A program made the translations under genes and the position numbers. From contig CM114271.1 in the NCBI GenBank assembly GCA_050084515.1, positions 8,928,001 through 8,992,000 of the forward strand: a stretch of DNA of 64,000 nt, written 5' to 3'. The stretch comes from Blasia pusilla. Its lineage: Eukaryota. Positions 17,956 through 64,000 of this stretch are shown piece by piece (the stretch's first letter is position 1; every line of letters starts with the position of its first letter). The notes beneath the pieces were generated by a model. The model was not told the DNA's origin and made no database searches. It worked only from the letters and a program-made list of their open reading frames with translations.

Positions 17956-18079
17956 GAAGATGAGGTTTGATAACCGAATACGGCATGATCCAGTGAAGGA
18001 GGGGGACATGGTGCTGATGTATGATAGTCGACCCCAAAAGTTTCCAGGAAAGCTGCACATTTGACTGCTTGGGCCTTAT

Positions 18080-21733: not shown

Positions 21734-22457
21734 TGAAAGCCATCAAATTCACAGAAACAACTGTCGAACATTGTGCAACCTCTCGAAAGTTGGGTCGGTG
21801 TCAAGGTTGGCGAGCTGCTCTGGAGCAGCAAGAAGTAATTGCACTCGAAACTCTTTTAATGTACAAGAGTTATAAGAATTGATTTTTTTATGATGATTTA
21901 TGGGGTTCAATCCCCAAGAGGATCACTCTTGTCCGAAAAAGGAAGTTAAAGTGTGTCGTTTATATGAGGTTGATAATTATGTTGATACAAAATAGATTCA
22001 AACATTCATCTGCTTATTCTCCTTCTCACAAGTACCAAGATTTTTCCTTTCTTCTCTTCTCTCAAGTGGAATCAAATGAACGCTCAGGCATATTCATACT
22101 CAGCACCAAAGAACCTCATAGAGATCTCATCAACGAGATGGCTTCTCCTACTTTCCGCCCTCAATCTGTCTTTGCAGGCTACTCTATGTCGGACAAATTT
22201 CTCACATCTCGATGTTGATTATTCTATTGGTGAAATTTTCTCTCCCAATCCACTCCTCACTCTACAAACCCAATAAGAATTCTCAGACATATGTATCGCA
22301 CATCAGAATGAAGGAATGAGTTCTTTACTATTCCATCAAGAACAAGAAAGCTTCAAAGTGTATACAAGCACGAGAGAGTACGAATCTCTCGCTCGGACCA
22401 TTCCTATAGCGTAAGGATATCGTAAGAGAATGATCTTGATAACTACGTTGATGATCT
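21734..22457 (-). mobile_element. Part of a TGTGATACC-family LTR; the remainder lies at 36735-37243
   Basis: Reverse-complement similarity to 39000-39700 and 39930-40445; joins collinearly with 36735 onward when 22458-36734 is removed. Confidence 0.7.
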
Positions 22458-27928: not shown

Positions 27929-29190
27929 CTATTTACATATGGGACAAAGCCAATGTCCTTGAGGAACCAAGTCAAGAGGCGGCATCAAACACGACATAAG
28001 CCATCCTCGAGAACACCCATCATAAACTAGCATCGTGGCTGCGCCCTTGGCAGACCCACACAACATGCATCTCAAGCCTGTAGGAACAACTACCAAGCTT
28101 GGATCAATCCTCCCATCTATGTTTGGAAGATGATATGGCGCACAGTTACGCACATGAATTTTCCAAACGGTACCGTCACGACCCTCTAAAACAAGGACTC
28201 CTGAAGGTAGAATCTCTCGTACTCGTAGAATAGTGCATCCCGCCGTCACGTCCAATATCATCGATGCTGTCTGCTGTAGGTAGAGATAATTTCCGGGATG
28301 GAATCGTCGAATCCGTGCATCCTCCACGCGTAGTCGCGTACCTCAAGATATCGCGATGTTGAGCGATATCCAGGTTCTCAAACGCCATAGGCATGACTCT
28401 CCGAAAGAGCTCAACCCACTGAGAACATGCTCGCAGCCAAATGTCTGGATTGTCGAGGTCAAGTACGTCAACCACATCTTGTCAAATTGATGTCGGTAAC
28501 TCTGGCTCTCTCTCATAGAGCAAGAAATACGTTGAAAATGATGCCAAGGATGCATGTCGACTGAAGCGGTAATCCATCGCCAACCACGGCAACTATTGGT
28601 CCCAATCTCCCTAGTGTCCTGTCTGCAATCCATACTTGCGCAATCCTCTCTTCACCGTCTGCACAACTCTCTCTGGCAAACCATCTGCCTCCGGATGATC
28701 TCGAGAAGTCGTACGATGATCTATCAGTGCCTGATCACACAAGGCTTGAAAGTAACCCCTAAACTCAGTACCCTCGTGTGTCAACACCTCTACTAGTGCG
28801 CCAAAATGACTAAGCACTTTATCAAGAAATGCATAAGCCACTCCCTCACTCGATCTATCTGGAAACGCTACCAACTCAATCCACTTGGAGAAGTGCTCCA
28901 CCATGACCAACACGTATCGACTATGGTGTCCCGTCAATGGTAAAGGCCCTACAAAGTCTAAACTCTAGCGATACCCTAATCCCATGATCGATAAAGGATG
29001 CATGTGTGGTGTTGGAGCATTGAACGATGCCCGCACCCTACCACATACAATGCATCTGGCTACAAATTGCTGAACATCGGTCTACATACCATACCATCAA
29101 TACTGAATCTGAATCAAGCTAAATGTACGCTTGACTCCAAAATTCCCTAACTCCTCGTGAGCATGTCTCACAATTCGTGCTCGTTTTGAA
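27929..29190 (-). pseudogene. Integrase with C-terminal PHD finger (DNMT-gypsy copy 1)
   Basis: HAHEELGNFG..CIVC zinc finger; YVLVMVEHFSKWIE..GTEF..HPEADGLPER core; CMLCG..MLVYDGCSRGW..CL.PPL..VPQGHWLCPICK. Confidence 0.88.
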
Positions 29191-29789: not shown

Positions 29790-30760
29790 AACCAAGACTG
29801 AACACCCAAGTAAGACAGTTCAGGTCCATGGCCTGACCCAATAGCTATGTGGGGGATGCCTTTGCCATCAGAGGCACCGCCGTTGTACATATAGAGAACC
29901 CCATAGCTCACTCTTGCTCATCAGCGTTGGTTTCCACGAGTGTACTTGCCAGCTCATTCCATATCATGCCTGGTCCTCCCTGACAAAAAGCATGAGATGA
30001 TGGGAAACTCACCAACGTAGGCAATGTTGCCCTTTGTTGGCCCACCCGATTGGCCACTGCCAACGGTGGTACATCATCATGAGTAACAACCTGAGATCGC
30101 CGCCCTATATCCAAGATCGCATCCACTATAAGTACCGATGGTCTCTGGACTCCAAAATAAGCCCATCTTAGTAACTCGGATGGTAAAAGGTCCGTCCACC
30201 ACAATCGTGGACGATGTGCGCGCGATCCAATACTCGCCGCATCCAACATCACCATCGGTCCTATCCACGACCGTACCTGATGTACACTCGCCATCACTTG
30301 GGCTCGAGTGTTACCTAACAATGGGATGTTCTCCAAAATGTAGGCTGGAGAACATTGGTGGGTAGTCTGCAAGTGACGAAGAACTCGCAACATCTCCCAA
30401 AACATGGCCGACCTCGGATCCTACAAACCAAGTCCCTGACCCACTGCAGAATAACCCTGACATGGCCACCATGCCACCGCCAAGGGTTTCCGACCAACCC
30501 TATCCAGATTTGGCGTCCCCAACAATGAAATGTTGGCCGGCAATACATGCTGATATCCCATGATTGCAAACACTGGCAATAATTGAGGATACTGCTGGAC
30601 TAGTCTTGACACATGATGTAAAGAGACTCTACGTGGAGTCTCATCCCTCTCAACATACAAGTACTTCTGTACTCGTACTCCGACCTGCGACATTGCAGCC
30701 AACACTGTACTAATCCCTCAAAAGAGATCTAGTATACATAAACCCTCCTCGGGATACTGC
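29790..30760 (-). pseudogene. C5-cytosine DNA methyltransferase domain within gypsy pol (copy 1)
   Basis: Motif I LDLF*GI, II YVERD, IV WPCQG, VI YILEN, VIII RAHRPRLWW, IX E*AMGF, X LLGQAMD, in canonical order. Confidence 0.9.
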
Positions 30761-31104
30761 CACACCATCAGTATGGTGTCCAAGGGTGTCAATGTCTCCA
30801 CTCCTAGAGCACGTTATAACTCTGTCTCGTCTCGCTCTAGAGCATAGGCTCAACTCCATGCCTGCCTCACAAGCTCATGTGCTATCCTCTGCAAATCGAT
30901 GCTCGTTCCCCACAAAGTTGAAGAAGTGTCGCCAGCAAATGTAGCCACGCTCGTCATCGCATGCCACTCCTCAAGACTATCCTCTACATCAGCGTTCCCC
31001 TCCAGTAAATCTTCAGGCCAACATAATGTGCCACAAGAAGCAGCAATTGTTGTTGTCGACCCGCAAAGTGAACCATCAAGTCTCCCTGCATACTGCACGG
31101 GTAG

Positions 31105-39700: not shown

Positions 39701-40454
39701 AGTGGCACACCATTAGAGTAGTTAGGTTAGGAAGAGACATACATTTTCAGAACAAATAGGAAGGTAGAAGAGTTACGACCTATGAATTCCTAGGAATCAT
39801 AGGAAAAATTAAGAGAACCGTAGATTAAAGTAGTTACAAGATCTCAAGAGGTGTTTACTCTAAAGAAGCGCTTCATATCTTTGATATTGACGTCGTTTAA
39901 GATAATATTTAAAGACTATCAAAGGAGTTTCCAGCATCATTCTCTTACGACGTCCTTATGATGTAGGAATGATCTGAGCCAAAGAGTAATACCCTCACAT
40001 GCTTGTACACACTTTACAGCCTTTTTGTTCTTGATGGAATAGCATAAACCTCATTTCTTCATTATGATGTGGGGTGTATCTATCTAAGAGATCTTATTCG
40101 GTCTGCAGAGTGAGAAATGATTGGTAGAGCATCTTTCACTAGAAGAATAATCAATTGCAAGATGTAGGAAGTCTATTTGACAGAGAGTTACGTGCCAAGA
40201 TGGATTTAGTTCCGAGAGTAGGAAAAGCCATCTGGCGATTGAGATCTCTGTGAGGTTCTTTTGTTAAGGAAGCATCTGCCAGAGAGTTCTATACCACTTG
40301 AGAGAATAGAAGAAAGGAAATCTTGGTACTTATTAAGAGAAGAACAACCTGATGAATGTTTGAATCTGTTTTGTATAAACATAATCATCACCTTCACATA
40401 AACAACACAACTTAAAGCTCTCTTTTCGGATAATAGTGATCTTTTTTGATATTT

Positions 40455-40945
40455 GCTATAGGGTGTTGAATGGATGGTTGACCATGGGTGCACACGTTTA
40501 TGACCATGTGGAAAAAGGACTCAAACCCTTTTTTTTTTATGTGAGGTAAAAGCAAAAGATGTTGGCAGCTTGAAGATATGCTGGTTACTCTTATAAGAGG
40601 TGGTGAAGGAAAAAAAAAAAGGCCACCTCCTGAAATTTATGCGTTCATAGCGGAAAATGCACAACTAGGATGAATTTCTATTAGGGAAGTGTTATGGGGT
40701 GGAGAAGTTCAACTAGAAAGGGAAAGATCGGATGCTTTCCATTGGTAATAGTCCGTGACTCACTATACGAAATCTTGCATCAAGGAGAATAAATGATCAG
40801 AGCATGTTGATCTACTACAACATTGCAAGGATAGCAAATGCTTGAAACAAGCGATGGAGTCCCAATAAGAGCTTCATGTGTGGTGGAGGAAGCATGCAAT
40901 TGAGGGGAAATATAAAGAGTTGTGTTGTGAAACCTGGTAAATAGA
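40455..40945 (+). pseudogene. Fragment of the Mutator-like transposase
   Basis: Clear nucleotide similarity to 58760-59250 (LNGWLTMGAHVYDHVEKG...DAFHW). Confidence 0.85.
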
Positions 40946-41215: not shown

Positions 41216-44200
41216 TGTCGCGCCCCTACTCTCCTTGAACGTCAATCTTTAGTGTTGCGGAAGCGTGCGTTCAGTAGGTCACGAACTCATCGCCGATCTG
41301 CACCCAAACACGCACTCTCGTTAGTTGGGTTTGGCCAACCGGCGTTCCAACCCACCGAGTCCTCAACTCGGCGTCTCATCATGCTCAACGTTCCTTAGTT
41401 CCTCGCTTCCAACACATGGCAAGTCCTTCAAGACTTGGAACAGACTTCCTGGTTAGTCCAGGGATCAAACAAGATTTTGCGCGCCTAGCGATCCCAACTG
41501 TTCAACGGTCCTCGGGTGAGTTCCGAACCGAGACCCAAGTAATTGAGTCGCGGCGTGAAATCCAAGAGGGATGTCTAAAATCGCTTCAATGGACTTGGTG
41601 CAGGTTTTCCAACCTAACGCCCAACTCGCGTTCCGTTCCATGCCCTTGAGCCGCCCCGCAACGCCCAAAGTGGGGTTTGGGTTCCAAGCACTCTCGGAGA
41701 CCTTGCCCCTTACTAGTACTTCTGGGGTTCTCCAATAACCCCTCCCCTTTGGGAAAAGAGGGTCGGGCCCTTCATTGTGGCCCTCAACCCGACTCCACTT
41801 ACAGTCGTTTTCGGGTCGTATCTCGGCTGGTGCTTATGCGTTTGCATCGATCTTTGGTGCGTTTGGACCGGCTCTCCACAAGCTTTCCAACGCACCCTTA
41901 TTTGCTCCAAACGCATCTTGGCGCTAAAAGTTATGGCCATAAATACAGTCAGAAACTCTCAAACGCTAGTGGTGTTCCAAATTCGGATCTTCCCTTTGGC
42001 AACCCACTTCCTAGACTCGACTTCTTTCAAGTCTCATTCCGCGTTTGGTCCAGGTTTCTCAGTCACGACCATACCACCTGAAACACGACTCCTCGTTCGC
42101 GTCTCGTCTCTTGTCTCCTCTTTGAGACAACTCCAACGCGCAAACCATCTTAGCGTGAGCCCGCTAATGTTCTGATGTTCCGCTTGGCACTTGTTTGGTC
42201 ATGAGGGTCGCGACACTCACCCCTCTTTTAGAGATTGATGCCCTCATCAACGCAAACCTTTATTATGTCAAGTCTCCTGGGCAGCCTACCCCTTGACATT
42301 GAATTGCGTTCTGGTGGCTAACCCGCAATTCCTCTTAGTCTCTAGTTGTCGCTTTGCCCCACTTAGAATTACTAGCCTCTCCTCTTCGATAAGCCTGGAC
42401 TAGTTCCAAGGAACTAACCTTTCAAATAAGCTTACTAAGTGTGCAACCTTAGACTCTTTCGACTCATTACTGTAAACATCACACCTGTTTACCTGGTCCA
42501 CAAATCGTACTACTATTGGGTGGCTCTCGTATTCGACTTAGGCGCGTTACTAAGTTTATTTATGTGGCCACAAGTAAGATCATCCCAAGCCCCAAGACAG
42601 ACTTCATCTGCCCCGCCGACGCTAGGGCGAGCCTGAGTGTAATCCAACACAAGGTCCTGTTCTAGGTGCTTATCCACATACGAGCTCTCACCTCAAATAC
42701 TCCTTGTCTGTCCTCTTGTCGTACATTCTAAGCCTATGATGAACGACTCATAACCATGCACTACCACATACAAATTGCAATCAACACTGGTATCGAATCT
42801 CCAAATCCATACACTCCTTTATTGCAACACTAGCATATTCTAGTTACAACGGCCTTCGGCCCAAGATTCCACTGGTTACAAGTCATGTCTCTAGCTTCTC
42901 CTCGTACTAACGTATGTGCTTCGCTTGTGTTCGCTTGAAGTCACGCAACAACTCTTGCGCGTGTTCCAAATCCGCCTCCGCAATCCAAGTCGCCTCCTTC
43001 ATATGGTAGCCCTTCCATTTTACCAAGTATTCATACTTGTTGGCCCGACGTCTCGAACGTAAGATGGTCTCCACCTCAAACTCCGGCTCTTCATTTACGT
43101 TGACCGGGTGCGGTCTCACCACCTGTCTCGCTCAAAACGTCCATTATCTTGAAGATATTTCTTCAACAATGACACATGAAAGGTCGGGTAAATCTTGAAC
43201 TCGTCCGGCAGCCTCAACGTATACACATCCTCAAACGGGTTTGCCACAATCACATACGGTCCAACATACTTGGCAGACAGCTTCGCAGACAACTTTTTGG
43301 GAAGAGTGAGATTCTTTACACTCAACCACACTTGTTCTCCAACTTGGAATCGTACTTGGCGCCGACTCTTGTTCGCATGCTTAACGTACCTCATTTGAGC
43401 CTTTGCAAGACTTCGCCTTGCGCGCTCTTCTTGTTCTCGCATCTCTACCAGCAAACCTTCTGCCGTCACTTGTCGTGTTCATGGCAATGTAGTACCCTTC
43501 GAAAGGGCTAGATCAAGAGGCCCTTCTGGCTCTCGTCCATTTTCCAAGAGAAACGGAGATTCTCCAGTTGCAGAATGCTTGGTCGAGTTGTAGCAGTATT
43601 CCGCCATGCTCAGCCAGCTGACCCAATCGCGTTGATCAGCATTGACATAATTCCTTAAGTACTGATTCACGATAGAGTTGACCTTTTCAGTCTGTCCATC
43701 CGTCTGTAGGTGGAAAGCCGTACTGAAACTCAGCTTGGTCTTAAACCTTATGAACAAGTGCTTCCAGAAAGCACTGGTAAACTTTGGATCCCGATATGAA
43801 ACAATGCTCCTCGGCAAACCATGAGCACGCCACCAGCTATCGAGGAATAGTTGCGCCGTTGTATACGCCGTTGCGGAATCCACCGTCGGCACGAATCTCG
43901 CGAACTTGCTAAACCGATCAACAATCACAAGTATAGCGTTGTATCCCTCAGATTCCGGAAGACTCGTGATGAAATCCATACTCACACTTTGCAAGGGTCC
44001 TTCTGGGATCGGCAAGGGATGCAGCAAGCCCTGTTTCTTATCATAAGAGACTCTATTCGCTTGGCAAGTCACACAGGTCTTCACATATTGAGCAACATCC
44101 TCTTTCATGTTGGGCCAAAAGAACCGTTTCGACAGAACAGCTAGCGTAGATTTCTCTCCTTTATGTCTTGCCAAGGGCCCGTCGTGACATTCCGCCAACA

Positions 44201-47200
44201 CCTTGGTTCGCATCCTGCCTTGCCCTACATAGATCCTACTCTGTTTGAACCTTAGTAAACCATGCCTCAAATTTATGTTGGCCACCTTCTCACCCTACTT
44301 CAACTTCCTCAGGTATTCCCCTCCTTGAGCATCCTTCATATATCCTTCACGAATCCTTCTTTCCAGATCTGTTTCCTTAGGGAACATTGCTCTCAAGACC
44401 TATGTCGTCGATGGCATGTGTTCCTCCTTGCGACTTAACGCATCTGGAATCACATTATCTTTACCTGACTTGTGGATCAACTCTACATCCATCGCCAAGG
44501 TATCATGCCACCGCAGATTGTTTGGTGTCACTTTCGATCCTGGGTCTCAAAATACTTGAGTGATATATTATCGGTGAATACTCGAGTCCTGTGGAGCCCT
44601 AGATAATGCCGCCACTTCCTCAAGCAATGTACCACCGCGAACAACTCTTTCTCGTGAGTAGGCCATCTCCTTTCAGTATCGCTAAGCTTCTTGCTCTCAT
44701 ATGCCACCGGTCTCCCTTCTCGCACCAACATTCCTGCAACCGCAAAATCACTAGCATCGGTATGCACTTCGAACGGTTTGTCAAACTCCGGCAGCTTCAA
44801 CACTGGTTCCTGCGATAGAATCTGCTTTACTCGGTTGAATGCCTCATTAACTTCTTGGGTCCAAGTCGTGTTGGCAAACTTTGCTGTCCAATCCGTGAGA
44901 GGTCTCACAATTCCCGAAAAGTTTTTCACATATGTACGATAAAATTGCACCGCACCTATGAACCTCCTCATCCCCTTTAGAGTGGATGGGGGTTCCCACT
45001 CGAAAATCGCTTTCACCTTCTCCCTGTCTGGACTGACGCCATCTGCACTGACCACGTGACCCAAGAATTTGATCTTTCTCAAACCAAACTCGCTCTTCTC
45101 TACATTCGCATACAGCTAATTTGCCCTTAGCTTAGCCAAGACCGCTCTCACATGTCGAACGTGCTCCTCTAGTGACTTCGAATAGATAATTATATCATCG
45201 ATATAGATGATAACATACTCATCCATTTCCTTGTGAAAAATGGAGTTCATCAATGTGGTGAATGTTGGAGGCGCGTTACATAGACCGAAAGGCATCACTA
45301 CAAACTCAAAGGACCCGTATCACGTCCTGCACGCAATCTTCTCCACATCTGCTTTGGCAATCCGAATCTGGTAATATCCTGACTTTAAGTCAATCCTACT
45401 GAAATATCTTGCGCCTGCCAGCCTATCAAAGAGATCATCTATCCTTGGAAGAGGATAATTGTTCGAATCGTCACTTTTTGTTAGGCACGGTAATCAACAC
45501 ACTGACCTCATCTTTCCATCCTTCTTCTTTACAAAGAGAACAGGTGCTCCATAAGGTGACTTGCTAGTCCTAATGTAACCCTTTTCCAAGAGCTCACTTA
45601 ACTGCTTTTTCAACTCAAGAAGTTCCTCCTGATTCAACCTATATTGTGCTTTTGAAGGCGGTTGGGAACCGGGTATGATCTCTATCTTATGATCTACGGC
45701 TCTATGCGGCGGCAATTCGGTCGGAAGCTCGTTTGTCAAGACATCCTCAAACTCCTTGACCACTTCTGGAGTGGTTGGGACTACCCTCAAAGCGGTGTCC
45801 GATCTCTGCGTATATCGCTTGTAGCCTCCTCCACTTGTCTCATCAAGCAGAGAAATCCATCCTCCAACTCAGTCATGCTCCTCCTTGTGATCGAGTTCAC
45901 TAACTCCATTTTCGCTGGAACCTCACGGACCAACCGCACCTGTAAGCGTTTGCCTTTTAGCAAGACGCTCAACCTCAATGGTCGGCATCTTAACTCCACC
46001 TCATACGCATCTAGGAATGTATTCCCCAAAACTCCGTCAATGCCATCCATTTCGCACACAGTGAAATTCTCCTTCAACTTGAATACTCCGCATCCTACTG
46101 TCAAACCCAAGACCAAATCAGAAGTCCGATGAGACTTGCCTCCTGCAAATCCCACTCGAATGGGCTCGTCCGCCTTAGAGGTAGACAACCCCAATTCTTT
46201 CACGATTCTCGGGCTTAGGAAGGAGTGCGAAGCACCTGTATCCATGAGCAACAACACATCGCGATCAACAATCTTGGATCTTAGGTACACCAAATTGTGC
46301 GTCCTCTTGGTGACTTGAAGGGACGTCTCAAGATCGCCCGCCAACAGATGCTTAGCAGAAAACGCAATCATACTCCCATTACTAACCTTCGGTTTTGAAC
46401 ACCCTTTCGACAGGTGCCCCGGTTCGCCACAGTTGTAGCATACGACCTTGCCGTACCCTGACTTTGAGTGTTGTCCTCCTTTCGGTTTCGCATGAAGTTC
46501 CACTCATTTTGCTGCCGGGGCAAACGACTCTCCTGGTTTGTGCTGGCCCCCACTCCAGCCTCTTTTGAACGCCTCCTTATTTTTTGACTTCTTCGAAAAA
46601 ACTTTTGGCTCAAAGGGTTTATGGGTTTGGACCTCATTGTCCCCAATCCGCTCCGCTAGCTTCAGAAGGTCCGCGCACGTCTCTCGTAACGTCGGCATTC
46701 GGTAAAGGGCCTTTTCAGCACTCGGCTTGAGTCCACTAATGAAGATAGCCTTCTTCGCATGTTCATCCATCTTTGGACTAGAAGTCGGTTTCGCACTAAA
46801 CTCCCTCACATACGCACTTAAGGAACCACTCTGCCGCATCCGCACGTATTCCACCGTGTCACGCAACCCTTGGTACTCCGGAGTGAACCGATCCCCAATC
46901 AACTCTTTGAACTCCTCCCAAATCAGAGGTGACTTGCCGCCCAGATATTCCTCTCGTTGAGCTGTCCACCATTGTAGAGTATGATCCTTCACGAATGTAA
47001 CGGCTACCGTCACCTTGTCCTGCTCAGCAGCCCTCTGCGCCTCGAAGTACAGTTCCAGTTCCGTAAGGAAATCCTTCACTTTCCGCGAGCGCCCCACTCC
47101 CGTGAATGGCGTGGGCAGGTTCGTCTTGCAGAGCTTTTTGCCCGCACAAGGGTTTTGAGTGGCCTCTAACTCTGCAATCCGCTTGCTTTGCTGGGACATC

Positions 47201-48584
47201 TGCTCCACCAACACCTTCAACAAGTCCAACGTCTGGCTCAACTCCGTCCTTTCCCTTGAGTTTGGGCCCACTGGCCCCGCGGAAGGATTCGCCTCCGGAA
47301 CGTCCTCATGACTGGCGTTCAGCTCTTCGGGAGTCTCCGTCTCCTCTATAGCTTCACGGTCCGGCATTGGTTCCTCTCTTGGTTCACGTCGCTTGATTTG
47401 GCGCTTCTTGGGTTGTTCTCCCTCGATCGCCATTTCCAAGCCAACTCACTCAGGTCTCCTCCTCGTTTCTTGCGTCCCTCCTCGAGCTTTTGAGTCTAGC
47501 CGCTACCTTTGAGTTTCCCCAAGCGTCCGGCTGATCCCACGACCCCAAGTTCTCGCTCACCAAGGATTAGCTCTGATACCACTTGTCGCGCCTCTACTCT
47601 CCTTGAACGTCAATCTTTAGTGTTGCGGAAGAGTGCGTTCAGTAGGTCACGAACTCATCGCCGACATGCACCCAAACACGCACTCTCGTTAGTCGGGTTT
47701 GGCCAACCGGCGTTCCAACCCACCGAGTCCTCAACTCGGCGTCTCATCATGCTCAACCTTCCTTAGTTCCTCGCTTCCAACACATGGCAAGTCCTTCAAG
47801 ACTTGGAACAGACTTCTTGGTTAGTCCAGGGATCTGAAAGAGTACTTGCGCGCCTAGCGATCCCAACTGTTCAACGGTCCTCGGGTGAGTTCCGAACCGA
47901 GACCCAAGTAATTGAGTCGCGGCGTGAAATCCAAGAGGGATGTCTAAAATCGCCTCAATGGACTTGGTGCAGGTTTTCCAACCTAACGCCCAAACTCGCG
48001 TTCCGTTCCATGCCCTTGAGCCGCCCCGCGGCGCCCAAAGTGGGGTTTGGGTTCCAAGCACTCTCGGAGACCTTGCCCCTTACTAGTACTTCTGGGGTTC
48101 TCCAATAACCCTTCCCTTTTGGGAAAAGAGGGTCGGGCCCTTCATTGTGGCCCTCAACCCGACTCCACTTACAGTCGTTTTCGGGTCGTATCTCGGCTGG
48201 TGCTTATGTGTTTGCATCGATCTTTGTGCGTTTGGACCGGCTCTCCACAATCTTTCCAACGCACCCTTATTTGCTCCAAACGCACCTCGGCGCTAAAAGT
48301 TATGGCCATAAATACAGTCAGAAACTCTCAAACGCTAGTGGCGTTCCAAATTCGGATCTTCCCTTTGGCAACCCACTTCCTAGACTCGACTTCTTTCAAG
48401 TCTCATTCCGCATTTGGTCCACGTTTCTCAATCGCGACCATACCACCTGAAACGCGACTCCTCGTTCGCGTCTCGTCTCTTGTCTCCTCTTTGAGACAAC
48501 TCCAACGCGCAAACCATCTTAGCGTGAGCCCGCTAATGTTCTGATGTTCCGCTTGGCACTTGTTTGGTCATGAGGGTCGTGACA
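41216..48584 (-). mobile_element. Structurally complete chromovirus (Ty3/gypsy with chromodomain), ORFs disrupted
   Basis: LTRs 41216-42215 and 47584-48584 (TG...CA); TSD CCGCA; PBS TGGTATCAGAGC at 47570-47581; PPT at 42216-42229. Confidence 0.96.
42907..47439 (-). pseudogene. Chromovirus gag-pol: gag, CCHC, PR, RT, RNase H, INT, chromodomain
   Basis: CYNCGEPGHLSKGC; LMDTGASHSF; YIDD; TDASDF; SMDFIT..VDRFSK; GPY; EFEVETIL..YLVKWKGY..EATW; several stops and frameshifts. Confidence 0.93.
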
Positions 48585-48699
48585 CCGCACTTCCCCTGCA
48601 CTTTCCAAGTCGGAGGACGAACAAACTTTGAATCCCTTTGCGGATTTAGGGGACGAGGAACCTATCAGGCCAACAAGGCCTAAACCTATACCTCCCCCT

Positions 48700-53079: not shown

Positions 53080-55063
53080 TGTCTCACCTGGTAATACATG
53101 GCCAGCACACAACCCAAGTGAAAATGTTGCTAGTTCCACCAGTTCGGTCCCATGTAAGAGCTTAGGGCCAGATCAGAAGATCAAGATCTACAAGATGTAC
53201 TCCTTAACTACTGTAAACCCCACCTCTTTACCTTAAGAGGCTGGAGGAACTCTCTCCACTTCAGTATCACAATCCTATCCTCACCCTACTAACCAAAACT
53301 CCTTCCTTCCTCTTGAGTGCTTTGAGTGGAGTGGCCAGTGGAACCCAACAAGCACACTCTACTTAGAATTCACAGTCAAGGATGACCAAGGCAGCATAAG
53401 GTCCTCCAATGTGCTGCCTTGGACTAGTTGAATGTACCAAGGCATCCTCTAAAGTACACCCAACTCCTAACCGATCAGGTAGTGCAATCACCTTCTTCTT
53501 CTCCTCATACCTTGCTGATCTGATGTTCTCCCTTTTTGTTCAGGTAGTAGGAGACTTAACACGCTGAGCCCATGGTCTTCTACCTATAGGGGAGCTCAAG
53601 CATGACCCTCTCTCTCTCTCCACTCACTAACTCTTATCACTTACCAGACCTGGAAGTCCAGGTTGTCACACCCTGGAAGTAATCATGTGATTGGTGTCAA
53701 AGGCCAAGCTTAGGTGGGCAGAACAACAAGCTTTCCAAGCACACCTTGGTGTAGCACAATCTTGGAACCCAAGCTTGCCTCCCCTCTGGGTATGTGACCT
53801 CTTGTCCCTCTCCTGCACTTTTGAATGATTAGTTGAATCATCTCCAAGAATCTCCCTTCATCAAGCCCTCCCCCAACTCATCACTCAATCATGCACATAC
53901 TCAGATACAGGGCAATGGTATGAACTCATTTCACAGGGCTACCTCCTGTGTATCACAAAATCATAGAGTACATGAGAGACCTTCTTCTTCTCAGCCCCCT
54001 TCAAGCACACTACACACTACCTAGACCTGGGAGCACATAACTCTACTGGTTAGCTTGGCTCAAGAGATAGAGTGTCTACTAGCCAACAACATGTCTATGC
54101 CCGCCTTCAAGCAAACCCACCAGAGTATTTATAAGTGAAGTTGAGAGCCTTCTTCTTCCATGGGCTTCTCTGGCATTTTGGGTTCCTACCTTCCTACAAA
54201 TCTACCTCCCCCTAAGCATCTACTCCAAGGCATCTACTGCCTGAAATTTCGACCTCATCTACTTCTGAACCTGTTCTAACTAGCATTTCCCAAGCTTGCT
54301 TCTTCTCAAGCTGGTTCGAGCTTCCCTTGGATGCTCCTCACCTGATCTCACCTGATCTCATTACTTCCTTGCTGCTCCTCAGCTCCTCACCTGACTTCAC
54401 CTGATCTCATTACTTCCCTGCTGCTCCTCAGCTGATCTCATTACTTCCCTGATGCTCCTCACCTGATCTCACATGATCTCATTACTTCCCTGCTGCTCCT
54501 CACCTCCTCATTACTTCCCTGCTGCTCCTCACCTGATAAGGCCTAAGCAGTCGAATGTGTAGCTTTCCTGGAAACTTTTGGGGTCAACTATCATACATCA
54601 GCACCATGTCCCCCTCCTTCACTAGATCATGCTGTATTCGGTTATCAAACCTCATCTTCCTTTGTTGCTGAACGGCCTTGGTCTTCTCTAATGGTGCCTT
54701 TCTCTCCTCCTCTAGGGCATCAATCATATCCAGCCTGCTATCTATGCCACCTTCAGGTTGGAAGTGCCCTTCTAGAGTATGATCAGTCTTCAACTCCAAC
54801 TCTACTACCGAGAGAGGGTTCTGCCCATACACCAAGAAGTAGGGAATTTTCCCTGTGGTGCTCTTCTCAGCTGTGTTGTAAGCATGGACAGCTGAAGCTA
54901 ATTTCCTATCCCAATGTGATGTGTGAGCTACCACCATCTTGGTCCGAATGGCACCAATGATCCCATTTAAATTGCAGATTGTTGTTTTACCTCCTTCTAC
55001 TCACCTAACTAGAGTCCCAAAAGTATCTAACACACATGGGAGCCACTCATGAAGGGGCGCACA
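53080..55063 (-). mobile_element. Solo LTR of family A (~1.98 kb) with integrase fragment and variant minisatellite
   Basis: Reverse complement of 10017-12282; TG...CA; flanks CTCGC/CTCGT. Confidence 0.9.
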
Positions 55064-57997
55064 CTCGTTGTAGGATCCGATCCCACTCTCTAGCACCCAC
55101 TGTGCTTGCGACGCTGCCAGTACGTAGGTACTCCAAGACTACTCCATCTTTATGAATATCTCGGCCACTTATCATCTCCTTTCTGGCCTCTGGATCCAAG
55201 GACTCTCCACCAAACCTCGCCATCGAAGTCTCAGCAATCTGGCTCTCCATAGCCAACAAGCCCAAATAGGCTGACGTGTGCCATCTTGGCACCACCTCCT
55301 CGTCACTCTCACCATGCCATCGAGCTCCAATTGCATCTCGCTGACTCGGGCATGGGTTACAGCTCAAACCATCTGCATCTGGGTTGAGCATCCTAGGTCT
55401 ATGCACTATCTAGAATTCATACTCTTGCAACAAAAGAGCTCACCTCGCAAGCTTCCCTGTAAGCTTATCAGACTCCATCAACCACTTAAGTGGCTGATGA
55501 TCACTAATGAGTGTAAAGGGGTCGCCGGATAGATAACACCTGAAATGTGCGACAACCCACACTAGAGCCAAACACTCACCCTCATATGAGCTATACTTTT
55601 CCTGTGCAGCGTTGTTCAAGCGACTAGCGTAAGCCACCACGAACTCTTTACCATCATCGCCATGTAGGGTGAACACCGCTCCAAGCCCCAACATGCTCAA
55701 ATCTGTATGCAATTGGAAAGGATGTCCCTTGATTGGTCTCCTCAATATGGGCACGAACGTCAATGTGTCCTTGAGGAGCTAAAATGCTCTCTCTTGCTCG
55801 TCCCCCCAGTGGCACTCTTGATCCATCTTGGTCAGCAAGGTTAGCGGCTTCGAAATCAAACTGAAACCCTTGACGTACCGTCGATAGAAGTTCGCCAATC
55901 CCATGAATGCACAAACTCGACTCACATCTGTAGGACGTGGAATGCCTGACATAGCCTCTGCTTTCGTCTACTGCACACCAAGGCCACCTGGGTACATTGT
56001 ATGACCCACGTATTCAATCTGATCGTAGAAGAACTTGCACTTGCCTAGGTGTAGCTTTAGCCCATGTAACTGCAATCGTTGAAACGGGGGCTGGTATTCT
56101 GGCAGGAGAGAGGAAGAGAGGAGAGGAAGAGAGGAGAGTCTCTCTTCAAGAAAAAGGGCCAAATCCGCCTCCTCTCTTCAAAACTTTTTGACATATTTGA
56201 AATTTTTGTTTGCTTTCAAATTCATGAAATCTTTAGAAGAGAGTAGGTAGTGGTCCACATTCGGGCCTAAAGAAACCGCCTTTTTCCAAGGGGCAAAAAA
56301 CAAGTAGACATCATAACACCACTACAAACATTTCTCCATCACTCTCCATGTGAGCCTAAGTTTCTTCACATTGCCTGTCTCAGTCTACAGTAAGATGTGC
56401 CCAGGGTTATTTTTGTTGGAGGACCACCCGGATGCGCATCGGTATGATGCCAACCTCTCTTTTTCCAGGGATTATTGCCTCCATCATGGCCTCCCCATAA
56501 TTGCCCCATAATGAATGGTGTCTGCTCAAGACCAACTTTATGAAATGTGAACACACAAGACGATAATTGAACCAAAAGATTGTTAGCTATCTGGAGTAAA
56601 GAGGAACTGATGTCCCTTCATTCAGATCCTAAATCTGAGAAACCGAGAAGCTCCACCCCTCCCAACCCGTCGGAATTTTACAGGTTGCAACTTTTGCAAC
56701 CCGTCGGAATTAGATGGCTTGCACCCCTTGCAAGAAAGCTCACCACAACAAAGGAAAGATTTTGAGAAGTGATTCCATTCCACCCTGCACCCACAAGAAT
56801 CCAACAGTTTGGGAATCCCAAATGGCAATTCGACAGGTAGTAGGAATCCAACACGTCTTAGAGAAAAAAAGAAGCCTACGACTAGTTTGACGATACTAGG
56901 GGAACGAGCCAAAAGTGAAGAAGCCCGCCACAATGCCTCAGAAGTTGGTCTCACACGGAAAGAGTCTAATCACTCAAGCAACCAACTTGTCAGAATCCGA
57001 CAGCTTGCCTGGAAATGGTTAAAAAGTTGCAGTGGTCAAAAAGTGAAAAGTTGCAACCCGTCGGAATCAGACGGGTTGCAAAATAAAAATTATGAGTAGC
57101 TAGACGAACACAATCGACAAGTCCAAAAAAAACATTCAGCAAATTTTTGCAAACACCATTATCCTTTGAAAATCTCTTATCTTTTATTACATCCGAATGA
57201 AGCTCAGAAATGTACATTTGATATAGTCTATGATTTCTTCAACCTCGTCATCTACAAATTTACTCCTAATTCTCCTAGGTTCCTATACAAAAGGAATGTC
57301 ATGGGATACAAGTGGCTCCTCTAGCCGCTTGTAGACGGGGATCGAAAATGTTGGCAAATTCGAGAGCCTTGCCCCCTAGGTACACCATAACGGTCCCATG
57401 TAACCTGATTTGAGTCCCACCGCCTTCCTTGGCAGTATATCTTGTACGCTCTGCAAGGTGACACCCATCCACTATCAATATCTGCTCCGTCCTTGGAAAC
57501 ACCATCACGAAAATCCGACAGGTAGTAGGAATCCAACACGTCTTAGAGAAGAGAAGAAGCCTACGCCTTGTTTGACGATACTAGGGGAAGGAGCCAAAGT
57601 GAAGAAGCCCACCAAACAGAATACCTCTAAAATTGGACCAACAGGGAAAGAGTCCGATCACTCATGTAGCCAACCTGTCGGAATCCGAAAGGTTGCATGG
57701 AAGTGGTTCAAAAGGTGCAGTGGTCAAAAAGTGAAAAGTTGCAACCCGTGGGAATCCGACATGTTGCAAAATAAACTGTCGAAGTACATAGACGATCACA
57801 TTCAACAAGACCAAAAAAGATATTCAGCAAACTTTTACAAACACCATCATCGTTCGAAAAAATCTTGTCCTTTATTACATCCGAAGGAAGCTCGGAAATT
57901 TACATTTGATCTATTCTATGAATTCTTCTGCCTCATCATCAAATAAATCCCTACTCCAAAACGCTGCAGTCAATCTGGGTCCTTGAGGTCTTTGAAC

Positions 57998-58321
57998 TCA
58001 CTCGTTATCATCCGAGAGCTCTTTCACAATTATTGTCGGCCTTGCCCTCCCAATTTTTGGAATCGTGGGAAGTGACGATGGTGTCACTACCAGTGGTGGG
58101 TCTGGAACCGGAGCTCTCGGCTTCGGAGGAGAGTTGTACGCCCCAACTAGCATGTAGTAATCTTCCTTTGCCTCTTTGCAAAGGTCAAACAGTTCCTGCC
58201 TTCCCTCGAGGCAAAGAATGTTCCTGCCACTATGGCAGGCCCCTCTAATACTTGCCCCTGAAAGGCCCACTAAGTTGAACACCAAGTCACCCGGCCTTGA
58301 GCACAGCTTGATGAGTGTCAC
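57998..58321 (-). pseudogene. C-terminal SAM-binding half of a beta-class N4/N6 DNA methyltransferase-like domain
   Basis: LIKLCSRPGDLVFNLVGLSGASIRGACHSGRNILCLEGRQELFDLCKE follows the pattern LI..S.PGD.VLDPF.GSGT...A...GR..IG.E. Confidence 0.6.
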
Positions 58322-61300
58322 ATCAAGGAGGATGTGGCGAAGAAAGTGGCCGAGGTCTACAGAAACTCTTCGGGTTCAAAGCCCGGAGTGATCAAGCTAA
58401 CAACAACATCACAAATTTGTGAACAATTGCTTGGAATCCTTGGACAGGGCGAGATCACGGCTACTGAGGAGAAACAACTATGGGAAAATGTCGCATTTCT
58501 CGCTGATCCTCAATGCTTCCGGAATTTTTTGCGTCAAATACGGGTACGGGATGGAAAGACGGCCGAAATGGATGCCATTTCCCGAATCAAGGCTAACTCC
58601 AGATTTCCAATCATTCAGAGATGGCAATTCATGGGCCAGGGAGGCGAAGGATCCAAGGCCTTTGTCTTCAAAATGTCAACGACAGGTCCGTCGAGTGGCC
58701 TCGATCTTATAGAACGAATGAGGGAAGGGGAAGAGCTTTAAGGGAGCTGGATAAGCTTTGATATTTGCTACAGAGTGCTGAATGGATGGTTGACAATGGG
58801 TGCTCATATTTATGACCATGTGGAGAAGGGACTCAAAACTTTATTTGTCTATGAAGTAAAAGCAAAAGACATTGGCAGTTTGAAGATGTGTTGGTTACTC
58901 GTATTGGAGGTGGTGAAGGAAAAAAAAAGGCCACCTCCGAAAATTTATGGGTTCATGGCGGACAATGCACAACGTGGGTGGATTGCTATCAGGGAAGTGT
59001 TATGGGGTGGAGAGGTTCAACCGGAGAGGGAAGGGTTGGATGCTTTCCATTGGCAACAGTCTATGACCCGGTACAACCAATCTTGCATCAAGGAGAATAA
59101 GAGGACAGAGCATGTCACTCTCCTCCAATGATGCAAGGACATCAAAACCTTTAAACAGGCCATGGAATGCCAAGAAGAACTTCATGGGTGGTGGAGGAAA
59201 CATGCGATTGAGGGGTACAAAGAGTTATGCTTTTGGCTGAGTTGGTGGACTGTACGAATGAGACAATGGGGAAACTTCATGCGGGAGGTGAGTTCACTAA
59301 TTTGTCTCATCAAGCTCATGCTGAAAATTGTTTGAAGAGTTGTAGCTTAAGTTGAGAAGCGTGGGCAGTATAGGGATCTCAAAACAAAGAAACCAAGCAA
59401 CCCGTCGGATGCGACGGGTTGCATCAAGAAGGTTTGGGTTACCTGTCGGAGCGCGACATCATGCACGAGGAATGTTTGTGCAACCCATCGGAACCCGACA
59501 GGTTGCATGAGTGTGCAACCTGTCGAATCCCGATGGCTTGCAAGTTGCATGTATACAAGGCCTGCAAATAGTTGGACTTGGGTGTGTTGCAAGCCGCAAG
59601 GCTGCGAGTTTACTCGATCTGCAACCCGTCGCATTCGACAAGTTGCATTTTTTTGACTTATGGGATTCCGACTAGTTGCGTCTGTATGTGACTCTCGCAT
59701 TCAGACAGGTTGCTGCTGTCACAAAGTCGCATCCAGAAAAGTTGCATCAGTTCAAGTTAACTGGAACTTGTCGAATTCCAATAGTTGCAAAGCTTCCTAT
59801 GTGGACACTTCTTGCAAGCCAACGGAATCCGACAGGTTGCACAAGGATTTTCGAGATCTGACCGGCCTGCTTCTCACAACCCATTCGATTTCGATGGATT
59901 GCAGTAGCAGGTTTTTGGGTGCTAGGTTACTAGGACATTCCAAGGATGTCTCCGACTTGCAACCCGTTTCAAGTTGGAGGCTCGAAAATCCATGTGCAAT
60001 TCATTGGATTCCGATGACTTGCACTTGGATCTTCCAGCTTGGAGTGGCCAAAGTTACTTGCAACGCGCGTGAAATCTAACGGGTTGCACTAGATGGTTCC
60101 TAGGTGTTGCAACACGTCGTAAACCAACGGGTTACACAGCCATTCATGGAATGCCTCCGACTTGCAACCCGTCTAGTTTCGACCGCTTTTTTCTTTGCTC
60201 ATAGCGCTATTTTGGTTCCCTTCTCACATTTCCATCGTTGCAGGGATTGAACATTCATGAAAATGCCCTTTGCCACAACACAAGTGGAGTAGAAAGTGTT
60301 CATTTCTCCTAGAGGTCGTGACAAGCATGCCAAAGAATTTCACTTGTGGAGGCATCCCGACAAAACCAGGCAAGAGCAATGCTACAATCTGCAGCATCCC
60401 ATATATTCCTCACAAAAGGCATACCAAAAGGAAGGGGGCCTTTGATCTACGAGCTCTATGTCAAGGCCACTGTGAGATCTGGTGATGAGAAACTCTATGT
60501 AAAAGCCTTCAATCGGTGCATAGCAGGAACTCCCCTCGAGCAAGACATACACATTGGTGGGGATATTTTTGGGCGCGTTTCAAGACGTCCCATACATATG
60601 GTGGTAGAGCAGTCCGAGCAAGACTTGTGGAGACCAGATAACTATCTTGACTTCAGGCAGGTGAAAAGGCAACATCAAGGAACAAACCCGGTGATTGATT
60701 TGGATGAGGAAATCACGCCGCCCAAGTATTCGGAGACCCTAGATTGCTCTCAAATCCGTGATGCACTATCTTCTCCAAAATCAATGAATGTTTTATTTCA
60801 AAAGCCCTCCGTTGCTGGAAGTTCGCAACATCCGGTCGCTGGGGTGGTTCAACAATATGGGATTTCGGTCATGGAGGTGGATTGCAACCTGAAACGGTCG
60901 CATATATCTCGGAGCAACCTTGGATGTGCACCCACTTGCAGGGCAGGATCCGATGGCATTAGGAGAGCATGCGGCACTTTCCTTAATAAGAACTATACAA
61001 GGATTGGACGACCACTGCTTGGATTTTAGGGACTCAAAACCTTTGATCGTTTCTCCAGGATCCGGGATCAATTGAAATACTTCTTCTGCCCAAATTAATC
61101 TTGCACTTTCCGGAAGTCTTATCCGGCTGCCATTGGAGCTCTAGGGAATACCCCCATGATTTGGCCCATGGCCGTTGGTACGAATTGCATTTAACACGAA
61201 GTGGGAAATCTTACAAGTGCCGGTTTGAGACTCGTAGACGAAGGAAGTTCATAGCATGTTCGCATTACAGAGACGTTCACATTTTTTATTCAACCCAAGA

Positions 61301-61746
61301 TTGATGTCGACATGTACCTGGAGAAGGTGGATGATCTCAATCCACTATTTCTGTTTGAGTCTAGAAATGGGGTGAAGAGAAACAGAATGTGTAGGCCAAC
61401 GGTGGAGAGAGCAAAGCGAATTGCATTAGCTCGGGAGGCAAAAATGGAAATCATCGCCACGAAAGATGTTTAGAGTGGCAATGGAATAGGAAGGATGTAT
61501 TGGGTCAGGAACCACACTGTAAATTCAAGTGTCACAAGGGTGTATGTGGTGCACATCTCTTGCTTTCCCACATGTTCATGTGATGACTTTGTCCAAAGAG
61601 AGACAAGTGGGAAAAGGTATTTCCCTTGTAAGCACATGTACCATGTGTCGCCTGTAGCTTTAAGAGAGTCGGAGGTAGGAGCAGGAATCCACCAACCAAT
61701 TCTGTCCCTCAAAGAAGTGCCAAGTATTCTAAACAAACCACTTTGA
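58322..61746 (+). pseudogene. MULE-type DDE transposase with C-terminal SWIM finger; intron 59288-60243
   Basis: WISFDICY, FMADNA, DAFHWQQS, NTSGVESVH; SWIM CSCDDF...PCKH; GTGAGT...TTGCAG intron keeps the frame. Confidence 0.82.
59395..60190. repeat. Array of roughly 15-17 degenerate 29-bp palindromes in the transposase intron
   Basis: Consensus TGCAACCCGTCGGAnTCCGACGGGTTGCA, separated by short variable spacers. Confidence 0.9.
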
Positions 61747-62303
61747 GGATGCAAAATGAGGTTTTAGATTGTAGTTTCATTTTCTAGAACCTACACTTTG
61801 AGTTTGAATTCTATTAAGCCCAAGGCAAATGATAGATTTTTTCCAGACCTTGGATGGAAAAAGTGATTGGTTCCACACTTATGATTCCACTGATTTTTCA
61901 GTTTTCTAAATTTTGTGCAAATTGCAACTCGTCGGACTTAGAGAGGTTGCCAAAATGTGGAAGAGGAAAATAAAACTGTGGGAGTGCTTAAGAAGTGAGA
62001 AGAAAAGTGCAAAATAAATCACACAAAAAGTTTCCTCTCTTCAACCCAACGGAAACTCTCTTACAAAAAAGTATCTCTTTGGGTTGAAGGTAGTTTCCTC
62101 TCTCCTCTCTTCCTCTCCTCTTACCACACCTCTCGTTGAAACACCTCCTCTAGATGTCGCTCATGCTCCTCAACCGTGGCGCTAAAGACTACAATGTCAT
62201 AAATATAATATCTAGCAAAATCCAAACATGCCAAGATCTGATCCATGACTCTTTCAAACTTAGCAAGGGCATTCTTTAACCCAAATGGTAAGAACCACCT
62301 CAC

Positions 62304-62915
62304 GTGGCACCAAGTTGGTCCACCAAAGTTGCGGGCGATGTGCTCGTGAACCTACACTCGCCGTATCCAACAACACTTTGGGGCCAATTCATGCGTGCAT
62401 CTAATGTGCACTCATCACCATGCGGGACCTCGAATTGGCCAAAATTGGCTGATTCTCTAGAGTGTATGCAAGAGAACAAGATTGATGCTCCTATAAATAT
62501 CGCAAGATCCGCATCATCTCCCAAAAAAATTTGGACCAAGAGTCAACTAACCCGCTACCTTATCCAACACTCGATTGGCCCTAACACAACCAACCATAAA
62601 TGACCAAGTCTATGGTCCCTACCCGATTCAAGTCCTACGCACCCAACAATGAAATATCCCTTGGTAGGAAACTCTAGTATCCCTGGACAGCAGACGCAGA
62701 CAACAAGTCGGATAACCCGAGGTGTAACTACACCACATGGTGAAGTGAAGCGCGCCTTGCAACATCATCAATCTCCACATATAGGTACCGTTGCACGCAT
62801 ACTCCAGCCTACAAAATAGTAGCTAAACTAGTGCTAATCCCACCAAAGAGATCTAGCACGAAAATACCCTCCTCTAGAATGCACCACACAATCGGGATGG
62901 TGTCCAAAGGGGTCA
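62304..62915 (-). pseudogene. C5-cytosine DNA methyltransferase domain, motifs I-VIII (DNMT-gypsy copy 2)
   Basis: VLDLFGGIS, YLYVEID, RDISLL, DLVIYGWLC*G, YTLEN, GSRAHRPQLWWTN, then a deletion junction into RT (WFLPFGLKNA). Confidence 0.88.
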
Positions 62916-62995
62916 TAGTAGCACTGCTGGCTACCTCGAGTTCCTCTGACCCATCACGCTCTAATGCAAAGCTCTCGCTCCATGCGGTCTACACA

Positions 62996-63518
62996 TGCAG
63001 ACTGTAGTATTGCTCTTGTCTGGTCTTGTTGGCATGCCTCCACAAGTGAAATTCTTTGGCATGCTTGTGATGACCTCCAAGAGGAATGAACACTTTCTGC
63101 TCCACTTGTGTTGGAGCAGAGCGCATTTTCATGAATGTTGAATCCCTGCAACAACCCCAATGTGAGAAGGGAACAAAAATAACTCAGAAGTAAAAGAAAT
63201 AAGCTACCTGTCAGAACCAGACGAGTTGCAAGGGCGAGGCATCCCATGAACGACTCTGCGACCTGTGAGTTCCTGACGTGTTGCAACACCCAGGAACCAC
63301 CTAGTGCAACCCATCAGATTTTGAGGGATTGCAAGTAAATTTGGCAATGCGACTTGCAACCCGTCCTTTTCGACTGGTTGAACACTCAAGAAACCTGTCA
63401 ACCTCTCGGATTCCGATGGGTTGCAAGTAAATTTGGCCATGCGACTTGCAACCCGTCGGTTTCCGACTGGTTGCACACTCAGGCAACCCATCGATTAGCG
63501 ACGGGTTGAACACTTCTC
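62996..63518 (-). mobile_element. Inverted fragment of the Mutator-like element (intron palindromes plus exon with the catalytic E)
   Basis: GFNIHENALCSNTSGAESVHSSWRS matches 60244-60390; about seven palindromes. Confidence 0.85.
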
Positions 63519-64000
63519 AAGGTGCGGTAAGGGGAGAGGAAGAGAGGAAGAGAGGAGAAAGGAGAGAGGAAACTACCTTTAACCGAAAGAGATACTTTTT
63601 TTTAAGAGAGTTTTCTGCAATTTGAAGAGAGTTTCCGTTGGGTTGAAGAGAGGAAAATTGTTGTGTGAATTTTTTTGCACTTTTCTGCTCAATTCTTAAG
63701 CACTTCCACAAAAGTCTTTTTCCTCTTCCACATTTTGGCAACCCCTCTGAGTCCGACGAGTTGCAAATTGCACAAAATTTAGAAAACTGAAAAATCAGTG
63801 GAATCATAAGTGTGGAACCAATCACTTTTTCCATCCAAGGTCTGGAAAAAATCTATCATTTTCCCTAGGCTGAATAGAGTTCAAGATCAAAGTGAAGGTT
63901 TTGGAAAAATGAAATTACAATCTAAAACCTTATTTTGCATCCTCAAAGTGGTTTGTTTAGAATATTTCACACTTCTTTGAGGGACAAATTGGTTGGTGGA
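63519..64000 (-). mobile_element. Right end of a further Mutator-like copy, continuing off the window
   Basis: Reverse complement of ~61690-62132. Confidence 0.88.

Follow-up and report, generated by a model that had tools for sequence, protein, structure and literature searches.

A 64,000-nucleotide stretch of the genome of the liverwort Blasia pusilla (GenBank assembly GCA_050084515.1, contig CM114271.1, positions 8,928,001 to 8,992,000 of the forward strand, read 5' to 3'; hereafter the window, numbered from its first base) is crowded with retrotransposons, as judged from Pfam scans, and also carries a divergent, apparently Mutator-like DNA transposon. This transposon is present as dead copies only, and every copy in the window is defective. 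One copy retains parts of a transposase gene, another has no recognizable transposase, and an inverted partial copy runs off the end of the window. Their non-coding parts contain clusters of a 29-bp palindrome, hereafter the dyad, in which two 14-bp half-sites are placed head to head. The form, distribution and decay of the dyads are described below, together with the element that carries them, and the possible roles of the dyads are then weighed.

A half-site position weight matrix was iterated from TGCAACCCGTCGGA and used to scan the whole window. At a threshold of at least 13 bits, 69 half-sites were detected, compared with an average of 1.5, and never more than 4, in 50 shuffled sequences. 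When a dyad was defined as two half-sites placed head to head at offsets of 13-17, 33 dyads were obtained (100 shuffles: mean 0.03, maximum 1). A further 12 (at least 13 bits) to 16 (at least 11 bits) lone half-sites lie within the clusters, so that dyads and lone half-sites amount to 45-49 copies, in agreement with the original prediction of a 29-bp palindrome in "about 45" copies. A search with the literal 29-mer, allowing up to three mismatches, returned five matches in the window and none in 100 shuffles; this search undercounts the motif because most copies are worn.

The centre of the dyad reads ..GTCGGA N TCCGAC.. in every dyad. The two half-sites are separated by a single nucleotide in 28/33 dyads, giving a length of 29 bp, and directly abut in the other 5/33, giving 28 bp; the central base is only ever A or T. 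None of the 33 dyads is a perfect 14/14 palindrome, and the number of complementary arm positions ranges from 7 to 13 of 14, with a mean of 10.3. Information content averages 1.23 bits per position in the arms and 0.07 in the 25-nt flanks, a contrast that is partly built in by the use of matrix-selected sites, although the flatness of the flanks is not. The consensus frequency is highest at the outer GCAAC and at T10 (0.97-0.98), and lies at 0.64-0.83 in the CCGAC part. Each half-site contains two CpGs, which confirms the earlier description of the motif as CG-rich. Two 13-mers of the motif had no occurrence in the searchable literature, and the literature matches listed for a 12-mer appear unrelated (animal, bacterial and fungal papers). 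The 27-mer core had no match across a bacterial and archaeal genome collection, a result that is uninformative for plants.

All 33 dyads fall within seven clusters that total 4,207 bp, or 6.6% of the window, and these are the clusters that had been named in advance. The transposase-less element has a left cluster at 7045-7872 (four dyads, plus one with a 2-nt centre at 7045), an edge cluster at 9944-10014, just before a nested long terminal repeat (LTR) retrotransposon (one dyad and one half-site), and a right cluster at 19100-19823 (four dyads plus degenerate ones). The transposase-bearing copy has a 5' (upstream) cluster at 56661-57768 (six dyads), an intronic cluster in the transposase gene at 59396-60176 (nine dyads and seven lone half-sites), and a cluster 3' of the gene at 61923-62053 (one dyad and one half-site). 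The remaining cluster, at 63202-63765 (eight dyads), belongs to the inverted partial copy. The left, edge, right, 5' and 3' clusters have no assigned strand. The arrays occupy both subterminal regions, the upstream region, an intron within the catalytic domain and the 3' flank; dyads appear repeatedly, in no fewer than five separate non-coding compartments, and never in the exons between them. No dyad was found in the transposase exons, in an isolated transposase fragment at 40445-40924, or in the Ty3 and copia elements. Within the window, the proposed restriction of the motif to the non-coding parts of the element thus holds, and it extends to the transposase-gene intron.

Strong half-sites have a similar distribution, as 68/69 lie inside the clusters, with one exception at 21774. 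This sole outlying site (21774-21787, 17.4 bits) adjoins the segment 21504-21693, which shares 72% identity with 56086-56285 read in reverse complement, just to the left of the transposase-bearing copy. The interval 21504-21787 may be another fragment of the dyad-bearing family, or of its usual neighbour. No convincing alignment with the 3' flank segment was obtained for the region left of 56661 or for 21490-21850.

The upstream part of the transposase gene was identified on the plus strand from homologues, tblastn matches and a structural model of a homologue. Its exon at 58301-59287 encodes an RNase H-like core with the first two acidic residues and a C-x-x-H motif. The open reading frame (ORF) 58301-59128 (+) carries an in-frame TAA at 58739-58741, and the exon is a pseudogene. 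The fragment at 40445-40924 (+) is a 480-bp piece of the same exon, with 82% nucleotide identity to 58757-59229 and no dyads nearby.

The interval that follows, 59288-60243 (+), is most likely a GT-AG intron inside the catalytic domain, and it encloses the whole 59396-60176 cluster. This reading is adopted because of a gap in the alignment to homologue P0072, consensus splice sites, and the presence of the acceptor and an open exon in the inverted copy. In P0072, the catalytic-glutamate motif directly follows a ..QWG.. motif. The ..QWG.. of the window ends at 59272, and the tail of P0072 aligns to 59234-59272 and then to 60247-60441 (36% identity, 67 residues, E 0.002 in a 3-kb search space). 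The donor reads GAG-GTGAGT with its boundary at 59287/59288, and the acceptor, which lies after a pyrimidine tract, reads ttgcag-GG with its boundary at 60243/60244; the putative intron is in phase 0.

The downstream exon region, 60244-61026 (+), was delimited from the alignments of P0072 and of the Riccia protein P0067, residues 447-506 of which align to 60844-61017. A single Riccia protein joins relatives of both transposase parts. The stretch of P0072 that contains the glutamate reads ..TVNLSESKH... Two stop codons interrupt the exon, TAG at 60310-60312 and TGA at 60319-60321. The inverted copy keeps the same acceptor, its first 56 codons are open, and it has W and S at the positions of those stops.

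The original prediction had also drawn on the VANC anti-silencing proteins of VANDAL elements and referred to an accessory protein. No accessory (VANC-like) gene was found. The ORF that follows the intronic cluster, 60322-61026, could be mistaken for one but is the continuation of the transposase; it had no homologues among proteins of similar length and no usable ESM Atlas match. An accessory-type (VANC-like) domain was likewise absent from all 144 ORFs that were scanned, namely 45 of at least 120 residues from across the window and 99 of at least 60 residues, a selection of the 146 listed for 6500-20500 and 55500-64000.

The affiliation of the transposase is not apparent from domain searches. 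Its ORFs had no Pfam match even at E<=5, and none of the 26 distinct homologues scanned had a relevant Pfam domain, including the Mutator-like element (MULE) domain PF10551. The domain-rich Pfam match of homologue P0106, an RTX-repeat protein, was treated as spurious. Among 1.84 billion representatives, 154 homologues were found at E<=1e-3, the named ones being from Calypogeia fissa and Riccia sorocarpa, both liverworts. A word-based search of the transposase against longer proteins gave no match, and a sequence search of the PDB with homologue P0162 gave none at E<=1. The nearest ESM Atlas clusters (score 0.94), which are taken as a lead only, carry PF10551 in 49-87% of their members.

An AlphaFold model of homologue P0009 was built from a 49-sequence alignment (predicted local distance difference test, pLDDT, 83.2; predicted template modelling score, pTM, 0.65). 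Its three best PDB matches are the IS256-family transposase of ISCth4 (probability 1.00, E 5e-3 to 9e-3, template modelling score 0.31-0.39), with RAG1 and Hermes ranked after these. IS256 is the bacterial relative of eukaryotic Mutator-like elements. The window transposase reads MADNA...FHW, in which C-x-x-H comes after the second aspartate; PT[VT]NL[SA]E[ST]KH is present in homologues P0072 and P0135. A GVESVH is encoded at 60286-60303 of the window, and its E, at 60292-60294, is presumed to be the third catalytic residue. The second D with C-x-x-H, and a TN..ES-type motif at the third residue, are Mutator-type catalytic signatures; both are present when the window and the homologues are taken together.

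Two further regions may belong to the same gene. A SWIM-like zinc finger (CxC...CxH) is located 3' of the core, at 61474-61743 (+), and matches Pfam SWIM PF04434 (E 0.0082, 16.1 bits, under the 19.6 cutoff). Additionally, 57784-57852 (+), which begins 16 nt after a dyad, is a possible relic of the end of an N-terminal zinc-finger exon (VH..SH..RPKKIFS), to which residues 357-379 of P0100 align weakly in tblastn (E 0.035, search space 4 kb). The rest of the ~420-residue N-terminal region of full-length homologues, a region that includes a zinc finger, was not found in the window. Based on the ISCth4 fold match, the MULE-carrying Atlas clusters and the weak SWIM-like finger, the carrier is assigned with moderate confidence to the divergent Mutator/IS256-type DNA transposons, and its earlier description as Mutator-like is supported.

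The other copies of the element help to define its ends. The clusters at 7045-10014 and 19100-19823 are parts of one ~3.7-kb element that is split by the nested Ty3-type retrotransposon, and no similarity to the transposase was found in it. Its interior, 7873-9943, has minus-strand ORFs of 132 and 136 residues with no Pfam match and no similarity to the transposase-bearing copy, and its left cluster contains an internal inverted repeat (7029-7110 vs 7622-7706, 78% identical). When reversed, its right end is homologous over the outermost ~55 bp to the left end (~56631-56690) of the transposase-bearing copy. A two-dyad module is collinear ~330 bp inward in both of these ends, and the sequence between is unalignable. 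This pattern suggests long, degenerate inverted ends in which only the terminus and the dyads have been preserved. BLAST comparisons between clusters similarly find dyad modules only.

The 5' cluster contains a direct duplication of ~430 bp (56827-57252 and 57512-57940, 84% identical). The second, inverted copy (62996-64000, -), recognized from self-similarity matches, is partial and rearranged, in the order gene 3' region, GA-rich repeat, dyad cluster 63202-63765, intron acceptor and open start of the downstream exon. Within it, 62996-63345 is the reverse complement of 60047-60393 at 81% identity, and 63547-64000 that of 61688-62120 at 87% identity. Two-dyad modules are common to its cluster and the intron cluster.

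The dyads show a specific pattern of decay. Relative to the consensus they carry 171 substitutions, of which 96 are C>T or G>A. Most of these fall at positions 7-9 and 11-13, where the cytosines of CpG and CCG/CGG lie. Such a bias is the signature of deamination of methylated cytosines in CG and CHG contexts. Because of this excess, it is probable that the dyad copies were long methylated and silent. Symmetric changes in the two arms, which had been noted in the original prediction, do exist, for example CAACTTGTC..GACAAGTTG at 7739-7767, but they do not amount to covariation: the same non-consensus base is found in both arms in 18 cases, vs 22.4 expected under independent decay, and compensatory covariation between arms was rejected. 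The overall identity of the arms is slightly raised (339 vs 326 of 462 by permutation, p 0.02), which fits old dyads worn in both arms.

In four pairs of recently duplicated segments, 226/270 dyad positions (84%) are identical, vs 917/1039 other positions (88%; Fisher p 0.051). The copies in the window are all dead relics that decay neutrally. New dyads arise by local duplication, with duplicated units of 34-35 bp at 56654-56733 and 63448-63514, of ~97 bp at 63280-63488 and of 430 bp at 56827/57512. Target-site duplications flanking the dyads were sought at several lengths, and were found in 0/33 cases at 3, 4, 8 and 9 bp, 1/33 at 5 bp and 3/33 at 2 bp (vs ~2.2 expected). The possibility that each dyad is a tiny inserted element was rejected for want of such flanking duplications. 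Persistence of the dyads across otherwise unalignable ends, together with repeated local duplication, shows that an active lineage either kept its dyads or formed them anew.

By analogy with better-characterized transposons, it is reasonably likely that the dyads are arrays of binding sites for a dimeric protein encoded by the element, probably the transposase. This reading is preferred because the dyad is long and symmetric, occurs at high density, is restricted to non-coding regions, is retained collinearly in the ends and multiplies by tandem duplication. The earlier suggestion of sites for a dimeric protein therefore stands as far as layout is concerned, which matches that of studied binding-site arrays, and the binding itself is an analogy. 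A much less probable explanation is that the dyads have no function and that a palindromic unit was multiplied by replication slippage and local duplication in fast-evolving non-coding DNA, like a dispersed minisatellite. Local tandem duplications do carry dyads, the dyads in paralogous segments decay at least as fast as their surroundings, and all copies are degenerate, as such an origin would have it. However, the dyads are irregularly spaced at 34-286 bp, with spacers unrelated to each other, and conservation ends exactly at the 29-bp edges. A slippage product also fits poorly with collinear dyads kept in ends between which the sequence is unalignable, and with their recurrence in several non-coding compartments but never in the intervening exons.

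The palindromes could instead act as RNA or DNA hairpins, with read-through or intronic transcripts folding and their double-stranded parts feeding small-RNA production or a structure-dependent step, an alternative that had been raised in the original prediction and is now disfavoured. Of the best-kept dyads that were folded as DNA, 5/6 gave hairpins of -11 to -15 kcal/mol, and the sixth, which is decayed, gave -3.3. An 801-nt cluster RNA folds more stably than 20 shuffles (z -6.8), with different dyads pairing over ~20 bp, and VANDAL non-coding regions are reported to be efficient targets of RNA-directed DNA methylation (PMC10398659). Any palindrome folds, however, so the hairpin z-scores add nothing beyond the palindrome itself. 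Stems of 14 bp or less are short for Dicer-like processing, and here no stem is longer than this, none is perfect and a mean of 10.3 positions are paired (7-13/14). Combined with the lack of compensatory arm changes, this makes a hairpin role improbable. A role as host transcription-factor sites, giving stress-responsive expression of the element, is very improbable: each half-site does contain CCGAC, the core sequence that DREB-type AP2 factors recognize in the plant DRE/CRT element, but conservation peaks at the outer GCAAC and at T10 rather than at CCGAC, the 14-bp half-site far exceeds a 5-6-bp host core, and there is a single strong site outside the element in the window.

The preferred reading, that of protein-binding arrays, was compared with known systems. 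In a search of the literature on palindromic subterminal motifs in MULEs, the one relevant case was Muta1, an Aedes aegypti MULE of the "type 2 foldback" kind. Its transposase binds a terminal inverted repeat (TIR) in which a palindromic terminal motif is combined with nine 12-bp subterminal repeats, and both binding and excision increase with the number of these repeats (PMC5499845). The resemblance consists of the same transposase superfamily, short repeats near the ends and a palindromic pattern, which in Muta1 matters for end recognition (PMC5499845). In contrast, the Muta1 repeats are direct tandem 12-bp units with 3-4-bp linkers in a 145-bp TIR, and the sole palindrome is the 10-bp terminal motif (PMC5499845). 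In the liverwort element the unit is itself a 29-bp dyad, the spacing is 34-286 bp, and the arrays extend over 0.6-1.1 kb, one of them being intronic.

The VANDAL21/VANC21 anti-silencing system of Arabidopsis provides a second comparison. VANC21 binds arrays of YAGTATTAY in VANDAL21 non-coding regions and introns, and these arrays grow by tandem repeat formation (PMC5735166). The likeness thus lies in a dense, family-specific motif in non-coding regions and introns, and in its growth by tandem duplication (PMC5735166). Unlike the dyad, the VANC motif is 9 bp long, AT-rich, non-palindromic and in one orientation, and its binder is a separate accessory protein (PMC5735166). The motif in Blasia contains CpG, and no VANC-like gene was found in the window. 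Therefore, the liverwort element is not a VANDAL/VANC system by membership.

Among other plant transposons, a preprint describes AtMu1c transposase as binding motifs in its own TIRs and activating cognate copies, and TnpA of Spm/CACTA elements as binding dense CCVTCGCAAA clusters, with density being essential (bioRxiv 10.64898/2026.08.24.746577). CACTA subterminal repeats are bound by TNPA-like proteins, and a GC-rich part was proposed to be methylation-sensitive (PMC2613891). The liverwort arrays resemble sites at which element proteins bind a dense, family-specific motif of 10-12 bp at the ends, with density conferring specificity (bioRxiv 10.64898/2026.08.24.746577; PMC2613891). In AtMu1 the transposase itself is both binder and activator, and the TnpA motif, like the dyad, contains CpG (bioRxiv 10.64898/2026.08.24.746577). 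CACTA elements differ in their CACTA termini, in their Tnp2-type transposase and in having sites at the termini rather than in a catalytic-domain intron. No Transposase_21 or related Pfam match was present in the scanned ORFs, and the ends that were examined do not start with CACTA. As neither a Tnp2-type transposase nor CACTA ends were found, the liverwort element does not belong to the CACTA group. In maize, TNPA recognizes a 12-bp motif, with a preference for tail-to-tail pairs. All of the systems compared have an asymmetric motif of 9-12 bp, whereas the unit here is a 29-bp dyad. A search of the literature on Marchantia Mutator-like transposases returned nothing about such an element by title or abstract. 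Overall, the dyads appear as a familiar type of transposon feature, found in liverworts and in a transposase clade that Pfam misses.

A possible mechanism can be outlined from these comparisons. The dyads would be cis-acting recognition sites of a divergent Mutator/IS256-type family of liverworts, and two 14-bp half-sites placed head to head are the geometry expected of a symmetric-dimer binder. The likeliest binder would be the element's own transposase, acting through its N-terminal zinc-finger domain, because it is the only element-encoded protein that was detectable. Multiple sites would give higher avidity and greater specificity for the family's own copies. Binding to the arrays could then assist in recognizing the ends and in excision, and might also activate transcription or relieve silencing. 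With two CpGs per half-site, binding may be methylation-sensitive, which would make a methylation switch likely. Protein binding, the identity of the binder, its dimeric state and the consequences of binding are all drawn by analogy with the systems above.

Several observations weigh against assigning the dyads to a transposase of this type. Of the part of the transposase presumed to bind DNA, the N-terminal region, the window retains no more than one weak relic, and the family specificity of the motif rests on a single 64-kb window. The dyads are without detectable present constraint, which is expected of dead copies and fits a functionless repeat too. The Mutator assignment is itself moderate: there is no Pfam MULE match, the SWIM match is below its cutoff, the best fold match has an E value of 5e-3, and Foldseek returned no PDB match to the P0009 model at E<=0.001. 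Finally, exact termini of the element and its target-site duplications, which in MULEs measure 8-10 bp, were not found, and short-word BLAST between candidate ends gave dyad matches only.

A more far-reaching version of the binding-site reading is doubtful. It holds that a dimeric liverwort transposase acts on methylation-sensitive 29-bp operators in its own subterminal regions and catalytic-domain intron, marking the ends for excision and switching both the family copies and its own gene by methylation state. If true, bryophytes would possess a transposase-as-regulator ("controlling element") circuit comparable to those of AtMu1, TnpA and VANC but built on dyads, an architecture undescribed for those systems. 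If the dyads are transposase operators, they would offer a clean, long-motif system outside the flowering plants for studying how elements recognize their own copies and how CpG methylation gates such recognition. With ~14 bp per half-site and a strict dyad, few stray genomic matches are expected. A tractable liverwort would, in that case, permit a direct test of transposases as intrinsic sequence-specific regulators. At present the practical value lies mainly in annotation: the dyad is a sensitive marker of an element family that is invisible to Pfam, and it also exposes the transposase intron and the non-autonomous relative.

Several retrotransposons occupy other parts of the window. The Ty3-type LTR retrotransposon nested in the transposase-less element (10023-19095, +) encodes gag, zf-CCHC, protease, RVT_1, RNase H and integrase and contains no dyads. 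Its direct repeats, 10422-11467 and 17955-18992, are 95% identical, and each LTR-like repeat holds a 70-bp tandem array of ~5 units (10547-10888; 18078-18423). A third, inverted copy of this LTR and its leader is present at 53080-55056. A segment of ~1 kb occurs at 41216-42216, 47584-48585, 15912-16908 and 5149-6151 (97%, 92% and 73% identity) and probably belongs to related Ty3 elements, several of them nested or fragmented copies. A second Ty3-type element (43116-47445, -) encodes gag, protease, RNase H, integrase and SH3_Tf2-1, and a copia-type element (22922-26535, -) encodes RVT_2 and gag; neither contains dyads.

Between the forward and inverted copies of the dyad-bearing element there is an RVT_1 fragment (62124-62351, -), and 62765-62915 is 72% identical to 30641-30791, which suggests that a piece of a non-LTR retroelement lies at their junction. 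Exons of a HECT-type E3 ubiquitin ligase, UPL3/TRIP12-like, occupy 1-5200 (-), and the exon at 2669-3850 (-) is 88% identical to a Marchantia polymorpha protein and 70% identical to one from Calypogeia. On this evidence the window resembles nuclear DNA of a liverwort and falls within or close to the Marchantiopsida. Lastly, the ORF 27929-28342 (-), which encodes a PHD finger (E 1e-5) and lies where the GC skew is strongly negative (28-38 kb), may represent a host gene or else a captured fragment.

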